A DNA stretch of 17,526 nt, taken from the NCBI GenBank assembly GCA_016839815.1, contig JAEOTM010000067.1, forward strand, positions 1-17,526, read 5' to 3'. The notes under the pieces are model-generated. The model was not told the DNA's origin. It ran no database searches and saw nothing but the letters and a program-made list of their open reading frames with translations. The stretch is from Candidatus Hodarchaeota archaeon (lineage in GTDB: Archaea; Asgardarchaeota; Heimdallarchaeia; Hodarchaeales; Hodarchaeaceae). This document shows, one piece after another, positions 9,906-17,526 of this stretch. Within the stretch, counting starts at the first letter, position 1, and every line of letters starts with the position of its first letter. The translations under genes were made by a program, and so were the position numbers.

Positions 9906-10238
9906 TTGGCAGATGATTCGGTATTATTCATTATACAGGTTTTTAATGCAATTTGTTGTTTAATTGGATTTATCTTCTTTTTTTCTGCATTTAGATACGC
10001 TCAGAAGATCTCGAAATTGTTAGAAGAGACTCGTATCGTTAAAAGGTGGAGAATTGCGACTATGTTAGTCGGGGGGTTTTCGATAGGGTATCTTGGCAAT
10101 ATTGTATTAATTTTTTTCGTAGATTTATCAGTTCTTCTTATAATTGAAGCTCTTGTCTTTCTTGGTGGATCAGTATTTGTTCTCTTGGTCTTTACACTCG
10201 CCTATCAAACTTATGAATTAATCTATACTATCCCATAG
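9906..10238 (+). CDS. Small 3-TM membrane protein
   Basis: Three hydrophobic segments; TTG start preceded by AAGGTGA. Confidence 0.75.
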   Translation: MADDSVLFIIQVFNAICCLIGFIFFFSAFRYAQKISKLLEETRIVKRWRIATMLVGGFSIGYLGNIVLIFFVDLSVLLIIEALVFLGGSVFVLLVFTLAYQTYELIYTIP

Positions 10239-12376: not shown

Positions 12377-12730
12377 ATGAGTGACTTTGAAGATTTAGAT
12401 TTTGATCTTGAAGAAACAGCAACTGTGAAGGCTAAAACACCTGCACAGTCGAAAACACCCGTAACTGGGGTTCAGGCTGGTCCAAAGAAGAATATTTTCT
12501 TTAAATCAACTGTTGGTCCAGAGAGAACTGAAAAACTCTCCGTTGGTGAAAACACTCCTGTGAGAGACGTCCGAGATACTCTAGCAAATATCTTTGGATT
12601 AGATCCTGATGATTTCCATCTTTCTCACGCTGGAAGAACTCTTGACGAAAGTGCTCCAATAGGTGAGTATGGAATAGAAAATGGTGATGAAATCCTCTTA
12701 ATTCCCCAGTCAACTGCAGGTTGGAATTAA
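12377..12730 (+). CDS. Ubiquitin-like modifier 1 (beta-grasp; acidic N-tail; C-terminus STAG-WN)
   Basis: Ub-like AGRTLDESAPIGEYGIENGDEILL; G115 followed by a 2-residue extension; first gene of the E1-E2-JAMM-RING cluster. Confidence 0.88.
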   Translation: MSDFEDLDFDLEETATVKAKTPAQSKTPVTGVQAGPKKNIFFKSTVGPERTEKLSVGENTPVRDVRDTLANIFGLDPDDFHLSHAGRTLDESAPIGEYGIENGDEILLIPQSTAGWN

Positions 12731-12892
12731 TCAGAGGATTAATTCACATTTTCTCAATTTTTCTAATAGGAAAATCCCACTTACAAATAAATCCAGAATT
12801 AAACTCTACTCTTCCGATTAAACAGTATTTAATTAAAAATTCAGATAGATATTTATGGATTGATTGTTATGAAAATGATTGTATTCTCGCTA

Positions 12893-12908
12893 CAGATTTT
12901 AAAATCTG
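12893..12908. promoter_or_regulatory. Perfect 16-bp palindrome CAGATTTTAAAATCTG with TATA-like core
   Basis: Directly visible; 72-87 nt upstream of the likely Ubl2 ATG, in a 249-bp intergenic gap. Confidence 0.5.
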
Positions 12909-12979
12909 GAACACCTTCATTATCAACAGATGAGAGTTTTCCAGATCTTATCCTAGAGAATACAAGGAACGATGTAATC

Positions 12980-13330
12980 ATGTCGGAAAATGAAGAGTTT
13001 ATTGAATTTGAGGAAGAAGAGGAGGAGGAACAAACTGATCCATCAATTCAATCCAAAGTTCCACGATCCAAGGTTCCAAGTGGAGAGCGAATTTCATTAT
13101 TCTTTCGGTCGACAATTGGACCAGGGGAAAAACAAGAAAAACTAACAGTTGACCCTGAGATGCCTGTTCGGGAACTAGCGGAGACAATTGGGGAAATTTT
13201 TGCATTAGATCCACAAGATTTTCACCTTTCAATCAGTGGTCGAACTCTGGATACTGATGATGTTTTATCGAATTACGATCTTGAAAATGGGTTAGAAGTT
13301 CTTATTATTCCTGTAAGTACTGCAGGTTAA
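12980..13330 (+). CDS. Ubiquitin-like modifier 2 (116 aa; acidic N-tail; ends STAG-stop)
   Basis: 42 of 78 aligned core positions identical to Ubl1 by manual count. Start moved from 12860 to ATG 12980 because MSENEEF parallels MSDFEDL, the lengths then match (116 vs 117 aa) and AAGGA lies upstream. Confidence 0.88.
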   Translation: MSENEEFIEFEEEEEEEQTDPSIQSKVPRSKVPSGERISLFFRSTIGPGEKQEKLTVDPEMPVRELAETIGEIFALDPQDFHLSISGRTLDTDDVLSNYDLENGLEVLIIPVSTAG

Positions 13331-13354
13331 ATTATTCTTAAAGGTGGATTCACT

Positions 13355-14593
13355 ATGTCAAATTTCACGAGTAAAACGCTGTCAAAGGAAGAAAAAAGAC
13401 GCTTTGATCGTCAATTTCGACTTCCTGGATGGAATCAAGAGATTTTAAAACAAAGCTCTGTCCTGATAGCAGGGATCGGAGGTTTAGGAGTAGAAATCGC
13501 TAAAAACCTAGCCATGGTTGGTGTTGGGCACTTAGTACTCGTGGATCTTGATACAATTGAATATTCTAATTTAAATAGACAGATATTGTTTATTGGCGCT
13601 CCTGAAGGTGCTCCAAAAGCTGAAATGGCTGCAAAAAAACTTCGGGAGTTGAATCCCTTTATCAAAGTTGATGCGTTTAATTGTCCCCTCCAAGATGTTC
13701 CTCCTCACATTTATAGTGAGGTTGATCTGTATATCGGAGGCCTTGATTCTATTGAAGCACGTTCGGAATTAAATCGCAGAGCAGTACATAATAAGAAATT
13801 TCTTATCGATGCAGGCACAGCGGTCTATAATGGACACGCGTATGTGGTTTCTCCGTTTAACAATGCATGTTTGGAGTGTGATCCATTAACTGAAAGGGCA
13901 CAGGATCAACTTGGAGCATGTACACTGGTGGGAAAACCTCGTAGACCTGCTCATTGCATACTTAAGGGACAATTACATTTTGAACAGAAGAAAGGAAGAC
14001 CAGTCAACATTTTACATTCAAATGAAGTTCAAGAAGTTGTAGCTTATGCAAACAAGCTTTTGAGGAAACACTTCCCTCGGGAAGACCCCTTTTCTGTGAA
14101 TCAGGTTATCCAGATCATTGACAACCATGAACCTACTGTTATTACCATTAATTGTGTTATGGCATCAATTCAATCCCAAGAAGCAGTTAAGATATTACAT
14201 CATCTTCGCACACCTAAGACAGAGGATAGTTTAGGTAGTATCCAATTGAATTATCTCATATATAATGGTTTAACAGGAAAATTTTACGAAATAGAAAAAC
14301 CTCGAAATCCTAAATGCGAAATGTGTGGAGAACGCAGAACCCCTATTTACCGTATTAAGGTAAAGAAAAAATATCCTCTAGTACAGTTAATAAAAAGATT
14401 CTCTGAGGATAAAAAGTACCCTATTGATTCTGAATTTCCCCCAACGATTTTTAAAATTGATTCTTCTGAACTTGGGGAAATTTCTTTAGAGCAAACTGTA
14501 TCCAAAGCAGGAATCAAGGATTGTGAGACTGTTCTTGTGACAGGTTTTGATGATGGATCACAAGTCTACCTTACATTAAAATTGGATGGTTAA
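13355..14593 (+). CDS. Ubiquitin-like activating enzyme E1 (ThiF/UBA family, UBA3-like architecture)
   Basis: RFDRQ, GIGGLG, DLDTIEYSNLNRQ, Zn pairs CLEC (172-175) and CEMC, catalytic Cys189 in ACTLVGKPRRPAHCI, probable C-terminal ubiquitin-fold domain. RBS AAGGTGG. Confidence 0.93.
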   Translation: MSNFTSKTLSKEEKRRFDRQFRLPGWNQEILKQSSVLIAGIGGLGVEIAKNLAMVGVGHLVLVDLDTIEYSNLNRQILFIGAPEGAPKAEMAAKKLRELNPFIKVDAFNCPLQDVPPHIYSEVDLYIGGLDSIEARSELNRRAVHNKKFLIDAGTAVYNGHAYVVSPFNNACLECDPLTERAQDQLGACTLVGKPRRPAHCILKGQLHFEQKKGRPVNILHSNEVQEVVAYANKLLRKHFPREDPFSVNQVIQIIDNHEPTVITINCVMASIQSQEAVKILHHLRTPKTEDSLGSIQLNYLIYNGLTGKFYEIEKPRNPKCEMCGERRTPIYRIKVKKKYPLVQLIKRFSEDKKYPIDSEFPPTIFKIDSSELGEISLEQTVSKAGIKDCETVLVTGFDDGSQVYLTLKLDG

Positions 14594-14599
14594 TATATT

Positions 14600-15127
14600 A
14601 TGTCGATTCGCATTAAACGTATTGCAGAAGATTATAATCAATTAAAAACCCTCTACAAGCAGAAAACAATTAAACAGTTGAAAGCATTTCCTGGAGAGAA
14701 AAAAAGCGTTGAGCACATAGCTGTACTGCTTGAAGGACCCAAAGGAACCCCCTATCAAGGGGGGAAGTTTATGCTTGAAATTAAGTTTGGACCAAATTAC
14801 CCATATTCTCCACCTTTTGTCCGTCTCCATACTCCAATTTGGCACCCGAATTTCTGGCCAAAACCAGACGAATATAAAGGAAAACGAAATATTTGTCTTG
14901 GATTAGTGGATCCCGACTTAATTGGAAAACCACAAGGATGGTCTCCATCAAAAAATATAACTACGGTAATTTATTCAATTTTAGCCATGTTTAATATTGA
15001 CGAGGCTTACACTAATCCTCATGATGTTTTTAACAAGAAAGCGGCAATGGAATATCTAAAGGATAAAGGAAAATTCAAAGAAAAAGCACGAAAAATTACC
15101 AAAAAATACGCAAAGAAGAAGTGGTAA
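14600..15127 (+). CDS. Ubiquitin-conjugating enzyme E2 (UBC fold)
   Basis: GPKGTPYQGGKF, NYPYSPP, WHPN (HPN at 82-84), sole Cys99 in NICL, WSP, and FNKKAA. Confidence 0.94.
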   Translation: MSIRIKRIAEDYNQLKTLYKQKTIKQLKAFPGEKKSVEHIAVLLEGPKGTPYQGGKFMLEIKFGPNYPYSPPFVRLHTPIWHPNFWPKPDEYKGKRNICLGLVDPDLIGKPQGWSPSKNITTVIYSILAMFNIDEAYTNPHDVFNKKAAMEYLKDKGKFKEKARKITKKYAKKKW

Positions 15128-15172
15128 TTGATACATGAAAATCAGAAAGAATCACAATAAGGAAGCACAATA

Positions 15173-15985
15173 ATGCCAAGTAAAAAGGATTCTCAAACAA
15201 AAAATTTGTTTGAATTGCTTCTCAGAGATACTGCTATGAACTATAATCCTGATAACTCCACTTTAACTTTAAAATTTCCAACAGCTTCTGAAACCAAAGA
15301 AGTTCCTCAAACAGAGGAAACTCTCACCTTAAAAAAGGATATCTCAGATCAGAGAGAACAGATACAAGAAGATGATGACCTAGACCCTGAGGTTGATCCA
15401 GTTAGAGTTAAAATTCAATTAAGAGCTTACATTCGACTTAGCCTTCATGCGTTAAAGTATGCCAATTCTTCTATTCCACAATCAGAGTGGGTTGAAGTCA
15501 TTGGCCTTTTGACAGGTCATATCGAAAACAAAGATACACCACTTGCGTGCTTGGTAATAACCGATGCATTTCCTGTAGGACATGGAACGAATGTGAACGC
15601 TGAAATCGAGGACCCCCAAAGTATGGTTCGAGTATTTAACGAAAGTCGGAAAAAAAGGGAATTAATACTTGGATGGTATCATTCACATCCTTCATATGGA
15701 GCATTCATGAGTTCGACTGATTATCGAACACAAGTTCGATATCAAAGACTAGGGACAAAAGGATCTCAGCTTTCTGCACCAATAGCTCTTGTTATTGATC
15801 CAACTAGAATATCTAGACGAACTTATGGTTTTAAAATCTTCAGATTGAAAAAAGATTTGAAAAACTGGGAAGAACCTCGCTATGAAGTTTTAAATTGTCC
15901 TTTAGAAAGTCTTCCTGAATTAATCAATACACTACTACCCTTAGCAGAAGGGAAAACGATGTTCTTAGAATATGATTATGAATGA
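15173..15985 (+). CDS. JAMM/MPN+ metalloisopeptidase (Rpn11/CSN5-like)
   Basis: E108 in EVIGLL; GWYHSHPSYGAFMSSTD (H170, H172, S180, D183); TQ..YQ; ALVIDP; ~75-aa charged N-terminal extension. Confidence 0.93.
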   Translation: MPSKKDSQTKNLFELLLRDTAMNYNPDNSTLTLKFPTASETKEVPQTEETLTLKKDISDQREQIQEDDDLDPEVDPVRVKIQLRAYIRLSLHALKYANSSIPQSEWVEVIGLLTGHIENKDTPLACLVITDAFPVGHGTNVNAEIEDPQSMVRVFNESRKKRELILGWYHSHPSYGAFMSSTDYRTQVRYQRLGTKGSQLSAPIALVIDPTRISRRTYGFKIFRLKKDLKNWEEPRYEVLNCPLESLPELINTLLPLAEGKTMFLEYDYE

Positions 15986-16008
15986 GAAGATGAGGTCGTG
16001 AAATCTAT

Positions 16009-17121
16009 TTGGTCGGAAGAAATGTTTATATCTCCGTTTTTCTTACGGGATTGGTCTTTGCAATCTTAAGCCAAATTGCTAACCCGGAAACTACGGCCTC
16101 TATCACACTAATTTATATTTCAATTGTAAGTATCTTATTGATTAAGCTCATAGACGAATGGCGTTATTATCGTTCATATAATGCCCCTCTTGCATCAGCC
16201 ATTTTTGTTACCGTACCTGCTGTAATTGCAATTGGGGGATCTCTAATTGCGTTTTCCGCAACATTAGGAGATCAAGAAAATTTTCTACAGAATTTATTGA
16301 TAGAGATGAGTCTGAATTTAGAAGTACTCCAATTAGAGTCTTTTTATCTATATCTAAACTTATTTAGTTTATTCTTCTGTTTACCTTTCTTCATCATTCT
16401 ATCAATCGTATTTAGACGATACTATTCAGGACGGTATCCTAATATTTTCATTTATAGACGTCGATTTCCATCCGAGTCATTAATTGCCCTTAATGTTGGT
16501 ATTCTGATAATCTTTATAGTTTTCTGGTTTGATCAAAAAACAATAGAGATTAGTTCTTTATTATTCCTACTCTTCACTATTCTGACCTTTATTCAAAATT
16601 ATATTATGAAATTCGTCATCATCCCATTTAGACGTAGTCCTAGGCCTTCAAGAAGTGAATCCTTTACACGAAGAAGATCAACTAGTCCTTCACAGGTTTC
16701 TAGGACAACTACTCAATCGAATTCACGAATCTCTCCCACCAGTAGATCTCAAAATGCTATTAGAAGCACTCCACGAAGATCGACGATCCATATAGCGCCA
16801 CCAGTCCAAGTTACAAGAAGAAAAAAACGAAAATTGACCCCTGCACTTATAGCGAGCTTAACCCCAGCAGGTCAGAATATTACAATGGAAAATTTTCGCT
16901 GCATTCAATGCTATGAATATCTAACTGACACCGAAAGACAAGTTGTCATCTGTCCTCACTGTAAACATCCCAGTCATGCAGATGAGTTTCAGAAATGGCT
17001 GGAAGTTTCCAATATTTGTAGTCGGTGTAATAAACCAATTAATACAGTAAAAATGATCAGGATTTCGGGGCCGAGTTATCAGAAAATAATTCAAATGTTT
17101 CGGAAGAAGTACAACAATTAA
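16009..17121 (+). CDS. Polytopic membrane protein with C-terminal RING-H2-like finger (putative E3 ligase)
   Basis: About 6 hydrophobic helices (aa 1-207), Arg/Ser-rich linker, then CIQC-x13-CPHCKHPSHADEFQKWL-x5-CSRC. TTG start, exact start uncertain. Confidence 0.82.
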   Translation: MVGRNVYISVFLTGLVFAILSQIANPETTASITLIYISIVSILLIKLIDEWRYYRSYNAPLASAIFVTVPAVIAIGGSLIAFSATLGDQENFLQNLLIEMSLNLEVLQLESFYLYLNLFSLFFCLPFFIILSIVFRRYYSGRYPNIFIYRRRFPSESLIALNVGILIIFIVFWFDQKTIEISSLLFLLFTILTFIQNYIMKFVIIPFRRSPRPSRSESFTRRRSTSPSQVSRTTTQSNSRISPTSRSQNAIRSTPRRSTIHIAPPVQVTRRKKRKLTPALIASLTPAGQNITMENFRCIQCYEYLTDTERQVVICPHCKHPSHADEFQKWLEVSNICSRCNKPINTVKMIRISGPSYQKIIQMFRKKYNN

Positions 17122-17139
17122 ACAGGGTTTGAATCGATT

Positions 17140-17526
17140 ATGGCTATACGGCATTCTATCGCTTGGTTTATCATGCTTATTGGTGTATCGGCAACAATAT
17201 TCTTTTTTATACAAGATGATGATGCATTAGCTCTTAATATTCTATTTCTATCAATCTATACAGCCATCACAATTCTTTATTTCTTACGAATATTTTATTA
17301 TGTAGATCATCATGCATCATTAAACGAAATCTATTTTCTCTCTCTGGCCAACATCATTCCACTGGTAATTATCCTCGTAAGTCCCTATTTTCCAATATTT
17401 GAAGAAGTTCTACTCTCTTTTGAAGTAAATATGTTACCCTCGAATGAATATATTGAACTTCAGATCGCAGTGACTTCACTACTCGCTTTTCCTTATTTAG
17501 TGGTTTCCACTGCATTGTTAATCAGA
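17140..17526 (+). CDS. Membrane protein, partial (runs off the right edge); apparent paralog of the TM domain of the upstream RING protein
   Basis: Manual translation gives 129 open codons from ATG 17140: MAIRHSIAWFIMLIGVSATIFFFIQDDDALALNILFLSIYTAITILYFLRIFYYVDHHASLNEIYF...SLLAFPYLVVSTALLIR. Starts 18 nt after the RING stop; not in the ORF track. Confidence 0.8.
   Translation, partial: MAIRHSIAWFIMLIGVSATIFFFIQDDDALALNILFLSIYTAITILYFLRIFYYVDHHASLNEIYFLSLANIIPLVIILVSPYFPIFEEVLLSFEVNMLPSNEYIELQIAVTSLLAFPYLVVSTALLIR

Follow-up and report, generated by a model that had tools for sequence, protein, structure and literature searches.

The ubiquitin operons of archaea are regarded as models of the system from which the eukaryotic one descends, and the ubiquitin ligases (E3) that have so far been studied in them are RING proteins that are small and soluble. 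We analyze here a predicted membrane-integral RING protein, which we call TM-RING (TM for transmembrane), from a Candidatus Hodarchaeota archaeon (GenBank assembly GCA_016839815.1; 4.24 Mb, 89.5% complete). The window, i.e. the whole stretch of DNA that we analyzed, is one entire 17.5-kb contig (JAEOTM010000067.1, 17,526 nucleotides), and the gene lies at 16009..17121 (+, stop codon included). It encodes 370 amino acids (aa) from a TTG start, which we accepted because its homologs open with M/L-V-x-R-N at the same position of the alignment. We propose that TM-RING is probably a RING E3 that is anchored in the membrane, has a zinc site that includes a Glu, and serves the ubiquitin-like cascade of its operon.

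The closest described systems are the srfp of Caldiarchaeum subterraneum and a RING E3 of Helarchaeia, both reconstituted and both soluble (PMC5654768; bioRxiv 10.1101/2023.07.25.550441). Like TM-RING, they are encoded together with ubiquitin, the activating enzyme (E1), the conjugating enzyme (E2), and a JAMM/Rpn11 protease, and their RINGs share its Ile and Trp E2-contact residues. In srfp, the equivalents of these residues, I30 and W58, are needed for ubiquitylation (mutants I30Q and W58A), and an extra Cys before the classical third ligand, termed C3B, was suggested to bind the second zinc (PMC5654768). The position of C3B is that of the invariant C315 of TM-RING. Whereas srfp and the Helarchaeia E3 are small and soluble, TM-RING is neither, since it has 370 aa, with six predicted transmembrane (TM) helices and a tether that is long and basic. 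Furthermore, srfp is described as a RING-H2 (C3H2C3), whereas TM-RING has Glu at ligand 6 and, unlike the two soluble ligases, it is paired in Heimdallarchaeia with a RING-less membrane paralog. [quoted passage not shown] We found no account of a membrane-integral RING in Asgard operons in the literature, of which our coverage is incomplete, and an earlier mention is possible. What appears to be new is thus a membrane-integral variant of a known archaeal operon-encoded RING ligase, widespread in Asgard archaea.

The operon and the distribution of TM-RING

TM-RING is encoded in a ubiquitin-E1-E2-JAMM cluster, of which it is the last gene. The operon starts with two ubiquitin-like modifiers. The first (12377..12730, +) matches the Pfam ubiquitin family with an E-value of 3.4e-8 and ends in S-T-A-G-W-N, and the second (maximal open reading frame (ORF) at 12860..13330, +) has a weak match to the same family and ends in S-T-A-G followed by the stop. 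Hence, their C-termini carry Ala-Gly, not Gly-Gly, and one of them is a pro-form. Next come an E1-like activating enzyme of the ThiF family (13355..14593, +; Pfam ThiF, E 1.5e-51), an E2 with the UBC fold (14600..15127, +; UQ_con, E 6e-27) whose HPN motif and Cys99 are invariant in the alignment, and a JAB/MPN (JAMM) metalloprotease (15173..15985, +; JAB, E 4.8e-16) with the motif H-S-H-P-x7-S-x2-D. All these genes lie directly upstream of TM-RING on the same strand, separated by gaps of 6-129 nt, and the operon is otherwise without an E3.

This gene order is found well beyond the window. A tblastn search with the window proteins retrieved 16 loci in metagenome-assembled genomes (MAGs) of Hodarchaeales or Heimdall type with the order Ub1-Ub2-E1-E2-JAB-TMRING-downstream ORF. 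The four genomes that were sampled from more distant Asgard groups also have the operon, ending in TM-RING, with proteins 35-64% identical to those of the window (35-44% for the E1 and 58-64% for the E2). Within the operon, TM-RING is the fastest-evolving member: its identity is 38-72% in loci where the full-length gene could be aligned, against 81-98% for the E2. The first modifier and the protease have 81-93% and 57-87% identity, respectively, in the comparison of loci L004-L019 with window positions 12377-17526.

The 43 homologs of TM-RING with E<=1e-3 all come from Hodarchaeales or Heimdall-type Asgard sources, and those with a name are from MAGs of Hodarchaeota, Hodarchaeales, Heimdallarchaeota, and Promethearchaeota. 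Every named record that we found labels the protein as hypothetical. The relatives form 116 representative clusters at 50% identity, and in a distant branch of the family the named members carry the label Lokiarchaeota or Promethearchaeia. Of 400 Asgard genomes searched with a profile, 270 gave a match. Matches over the full length, from position 1 to about position 381 of the model, were counted from the table in roughly 185 of the 400 genomes and in at least 12 family-level groups. In one of these groups TM-RING was matched in 121 of 135 genomes, mostly over the full length. A flag for a TAA codon inside the match, examined in genome G022, turned out to be the gene's own stop at the end of the match. 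The search with the RING profile alone gave mostly fragments. Soluble RING-only relatives adjoining a ubiquitin gene also exist. For example, in a Promethearchaeota MAG (L023:5192-7697), the gene after a ubiquitin-like one encodes a RING-only relative of 220 aa with a Thr/Arg-rich N-terminus and no TM helices, and the gene after that a protein of 313 aa that weakly matches a C3HC4-type RING.

The zinc finger and its ligands

The RING-fold zinc finger spans aa 286-347 (16864..17049, +), as delimited by invariant columns, alignment with RNF24, the AlphaFold2 model, and fold matches, and has the pattern C-x2-C-x13-C-P-x-C-x4-H-x2-E-x3-W-x6-C-x2-C. A preliminary description of the sequence had listed ten residues, C298, C301, C315, C318, H320, H323, E326, W330, C337, and C340. 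We found them all at these positions, and all are invariant among 24 close homologs. In 32 diverse homologs (down to 19-25% identity), C298, C301, C315, C318, H323, E326, W330, C337, and C340 are still invariant; H320 is the exception. The conservation of the finger is far beyond chance. The spacing of the ligand positions is also fixed across the family (x2, x(10-17), x2, x4, x2, x10, x2).

These residues had been read as a RING-H2-like set in which H320 is a ligand and C315 a spare one, and the wider family argues for the opposite assignment. Among 149 relatives, position 320 is occupied by His in 76, Tyr in 41, Arg in 11, Phe in 11, and Lys in 7, and is thus other than His in 73. Because H320 varies in about half of these relatives and C315 in none, the ligand set would be C4-H-E-C2, and not a RING-H2 with a spare Cys. 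The C3H2C3 type is defined by a His as ligand 4 together with a Cys as ligand 6, a combination that TM-RING does not have. The finger appears to have the eight ligand positions of the cross-brace topology of RINGs, with C-x2-C pairs at both ends, occupied by seven Cys or His residues and the Glu, all invariant. Since the conserved set follows this topology, site 1 is expected to comprise C298, C301, H323, and E326, and site 2 C315, C318, C337, and C340.

The Glu is an unusual element of this scheme. The alignment of the family profile with PDB sequences places E326 at the sixth ligand Cys of RNF24, in line with the earlier suggestion that it occupies the position of a RING-H2 Cys. Over the 149 relatives, position 326 is Glu in 140, His in 8, and Ala in one, and some further tandem-RING relatives have Asp. 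This conservation supports the idea that E326 is a true metal ligand, because the position is restricted to Glu, His, or Asp, all of which have metal-binding side chains. We regard the restriction as the strongest available argument that Glu may ligate the zinc. A soluble small RING of 70 aa from the same genome (L002:1435-1647, + strand, equivalent to G000:C135) has His at ligand 6. It shares the C-P-x-C-x4-H-x2-X-x3-W layout and passes the Pfam zf-RING_2 threshold (29.7 vs 27.3 bits).

The explanation that competes best with a two-zinc finger is a one-zinc domain of U-box or SP-RING type, in which site 1 is free of metal and E326 stabilizes the fold by salt bridges or hydrogen bonds; even so, the protein would be a membrane E3. 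We find this unlikely, because C298, C301, and H323 are invariant in all relatives, which is unexpected for a dead site, and because position 326 tolerates only the metal-binding Glu, His, and Asp, the single Ala aside.

The assignment of the finger to the RINGs draws on sequence profiles, on structure comparison, and on the residues expected to face the E2. The best PDB sequence match of the family profile is the RING-H2 of RNF24 (PDB 2ep4; E 4.5e-5). RNF24 is a membrane-anchored protein with a cytosolic RING and shares C-P-x-C...H-x2-X-L-x-K-W-L...C-x2-C with TM-RING; unlike TM-RING, it has Cys at ligand 6, His at ligand 4, a single TM helix, and no operon. The RING domain was modeled by AlphaFold2 with a predicted local distance difference test (pLDDT) score of 86. 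The 50 best structural matches of this model (Foldseek, VIA-align) are all RING or U-box E3 domains, some of which have alignments that reach into the flanking helices, and comparison of the model thus points to a RING fold. The finger is followed by a C-terminal strand and amphipathic helix (aa 348-370; 17050..17118, +), defined from the AlphaFold2 secondary structure, where R351, G354, and Y357 are invariant; the helix corresponds to residues 83-97 of the RING domain model. At the E2-contact positions, Ile follows the first Cys ligand in 130 of the 149 relatives and Pro follows the third in 142. The central-helix Trp, which the preliminary description took for the E2-binding residue, is kept in 149 of 149, and the pattern used to collect these relatives did not require it. 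All three contact residues are thus present in TM-RING, and its central helix carries the RING-type motif H-x2-X-[FYL]-x2-W. In Pfam, TM-RING itself falls short of the zf-RING_2 gathering threshold, and 7 of the 32 diverse family members match this model at E<=0.01. A complex prediction with the operon E2, the RING domain, and two Zn scored 0.28 for a mark of 0.32, which is evidence neither way.

The finger could also be a PHD-like or other treble-clef module whose target is ubiquitin, a partner in the membrane, or the JAMM protease, which would make the protein a receptor or scaffold and not a ligase. Its spacing, C-x2-C..C-x2-C-x4-H-x2-X..C-x2-C, fits the PHD consensus motif, and Pfam and the PDB gave weak matches to zinc_ribbon_16 and the IFT144/WDR19 zinc ribbons. 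However, ligand 6 is Glu, the helix motif is of the RING type, Ile and Pro are conserved where contact with the E2 is expected, and the gene fills the E3 slot of an operon that has no other. A PHD fold had been named beforehand as an outcome to look for, and no PHD, FYVE, RING-CH, or zinc-ribbon chain is found among the 50 best fold matches. We therefore consider such a module very unlikely.

Two other finger families deserve comparison with the RING of TM-RING. The first five ligands of RING-CH/RINGv domains (MARCH, Doa10) and of PHD fingers (C4HC3) are C4-H, as in TM-RING, and MARCH and Doa10 are membrane E3s, but ligand 6 is Cys in both RING-CH and PHD and Glu in TM-RING. RING-CH domains have the spacing C-x-C-x7-H and stand N-terminal to the TM helices. 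The second family, Prok-RING_1 (PF14446), the prokaryotic RING finger family 1 that reportedly goes back to Burroughs, Iyer and Aravind in 2011, is matched below threshold by 7 of the 32 family members (best E 8.4e-5), and the score of soluble relatives that have His as ligand 6 goes up to 29.0 bits, for a threshold of 29.1. TM-RING itself has no match to it at E<=0.01, and the Prok-RING_1 model has no membrane domain.

The membrane domain and its adjacent paralog

The membrane domain covers aa 1-205 (16009..16623, +) and is predicted from hydropathy, loop charges, and the AlphaFold2 model to have six TM helices with both termini in the cytoplasm. Hydropathy delimits six segments (6-24, 30-48, 61-84, 111-135, 158-174, and 181-205), and the AlphaFold2 model, built from a 23-homolog alignment (pLDDT 81.8, predicted TM-score 0.79), has six helices, all of them long, with a beta-hairpin in loop 3, which agrees with the bundle of about six helices previously described. 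The net charge of the loops (K+R vs D+E, mean of 24 homologs) is +1.0 at the N-terminus, +4.9 in loop 4, and +4.8 after TM6, and it is -1.4 in loop 1, -3.9 in loop 3, and -1.0 in loop 5. Because the positive-inside rule applied to these charges places both termini on the cytoplasmic side, TM-RING is likely to be N-in, C-in with a cytoplasmic RING, and not an extracytoplasmic one, the outcome that would have spoken against the preliminary description by its own account. The hairpin-bearing loop 3 would then be an acidic outside loop. The best-kept motif of the domain, E-W-R-Y-Y-R-x-Y-N-A-P (aa 50-60), falls in the predicted cytoplasmic turn between TM2 and TM3 and is still visible in relatives at ~22% identity.

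Between the membrane domain and the RING lies a disordered basic linker (aa 206-285; 16624..16863, +), recognized by its composition, variability, and pLDDT. Of its 80 residues, Arg and Ser account for 16 each, Thr for 11, and Pro for 9, in agreement with the Arg/Ser/Thr-rich linker with SP/TP sites of the first reading; the SP/TP dipeptides are present at positions that are not conserved. The pLDDT is below 50 from aa 203, and both length and sequence vary across the family. Conservation is limited to K275, P278/A279, L284, P286, and G288, just N-terminal of the RING.

A polytopic TM domain with a cytosolic RING-H2 is the layout of the eukaryotic ligases of endoplasmic reticulum (ER)-associated degradation (ERAD). 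Hrd1/SYVN1, gp78/AMFR, RNF145, and TRC8 have an N-terminal multi-span domain and a cytosolic C-terminal RING, as predicted for TM-RING, and their RINGs, whose partner is a cytosolic E2, share its H-x2-X-[hydrophobic]-x2-W helix. TM-RING would thus belong with proteins in which a multi-span domain precedes a cytosolic RING, in terms of architecture only. The TM part has no Pfam family, its sequence profile gave 0 matches in the PDB at E<=10, and Foldseek retrieved nothing from the PDB (E>1). In the ESM Atlas, the fold search gave TM-scores of at most 0.43 and the feature search gave no usable match. The resemblance to ERAD ligases is one of layout, and homology with the membrane domain of Hrd1, which may be remote, was not detected in these searches, consistent with the architectural analogy drawn in the preliminary description.

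A relative of the membrane domain was found next to it. Directly downstream of TM-RING, the window contains the 5' part (129 of ~194 codons; 17140..17526, +) of a gene truncated by the contig end, which hhalign identifies as a distant RING-less paralog of the membrane domain. Its full-length version is exemplified by L005:7131-7715, a 194-aa membrane protein without a Pfam family, and the paralog is directly 3' of TM-RING in 18 loci. The wide TM alignment matched this 194-aa family with a hhalign probability of 95.3% (E 2.2e-8) over 129 colinear columns, while reversed-sequence controls scored 13-16 (P 0.14-0.36). The signal is clear only with the wide alignment: the weaker profiles, of the close-family TM alignment against the downstream family, gave probabilities of 11-18%, and pairwise BLASTP between the TM domain and the downstream ORF was not significant (E 35). 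Adjacency of the two genes is seen in families f1, f2, f4, and f6 of Heimdallarchaeia, whereas none of the four operon loci sampled in distant Asgard groups has the paralog. Given this paralogy and conserved adjacency, it is reasonable to infer that the two proteins are candidates for a hetero-oligomeric membrane ligase. Two genes past the full-length paralog, L005:8498-9118 (+) encodes a protein of 206 aa whose C-terminus matches a zinc ribbon (Zn_Ribbon_1, E 2.6e-6).

The rest of the window includes an archaeal histone-fold gene (709-912, -; CBFD_NFYB_HMF, E 4e-12) and a 110-aa ORF (9906-10238, +) that matches the transmembrane domain of STING below threshold (E 5.8e-4, 20.7 vs 28.1 bits). 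In a search of sequencing runs, the matching DNA runs were marine sediment metagenomes of one study, with 29-47% of words, and no RNA run was listed for the window, which has no bearing on expression.

Proposed function and its implications

TM-RING would thus be the dedicated E3 of the operon cascade and an integral membrane protein. Six TM helices would hold it in the cytoplasmic membrane, and the basic disordered tether of about 80 residues would let the RING reach over the cytoplasmic face. The RING, a putative cross-brace finger with two zincs whose first site includes the E326 carboxylate, would recruit the operon E2~Ub thioester through the conserved surface of Ile299, Pro316, and Trp330. 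Lysines of proteins in or near the membrane, or of TM-RING itself, could then receive the Ala-Gly-ended modifier, and the JAMM protease would mature the pro-modifier and reverse the conjugation. In Heimdallarchaeia, the adjacent RING-less paralog probably pairs with TM-RING in the membrane. The archaeal membrane E3 with variant zinc coordination that had been proposed is thus retained for the six-TM RING-fold protein, its invariant Glu, and its place in the E3 slot, and revised in its ligand scheme, now C4-H-E-C2.

Several observations weigh against this assignment. Glu is unusual as a ligand of a structural zinc site, and one relative carries Ala at position 326. TM-RING scores below the Pfam gathering thresholds for RINGs (14.6 vs 27.3 bits for zf-RING_2). 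RINGs usually have a basic linchpin residue right after the last Cys. In the family, this residue is mostly Asn, Asp, or Ser, with Lys at +2 in only 76 of the 149 relatives, and because of this the allosteric activation of E2~Ub may differ or be weak. Finally, the predicted topology has hydropathy and charge bias as its only basis. A protein whose membrane domain is the functional core, as a transporter, a channel, or a retrotranslocon related to the Hrd1 family, and whose RING mainly auto-regulates it by self-ubiquitylation, seems to us highly improbable.

The E3 slot of a widespread Asgard operon is taken by an integral membrane protein, a predicted E3, including in Hodarchaeales, which have been proposed as closest relatives of eukaryotes. 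In its most far-reaching form, the main ubiquitin cascade of Asgard archaea would be wired to the membrane through a polytopic E3 complex of TM-RING and its paralog that selects membrane proteins for tagging, a prokaryotic forerunner, by descent or by function, of eukaryotic systems that ubiquitylate membrane proteins, such as ERAD ligases or ESCRT cargo tagging, with a membrane domain that is a true distant homolog of the Hrd1 family; we consider this quite unlikely. With a Glu that is invariant where a structural zinc is expected, the family offers a natural experiment in the metal coordination of RINGs. If TM-RING is active, ubiquitin-like tagging in these archaea would be organised at the membrane. 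Such an organisation would be relevant to how ER-associated degradation arose and, given that ESCRT subunits of Asgard archaea bind ubiquitin (PMC9192718), to how ubiquitin-dependent ESCRT sorting did.
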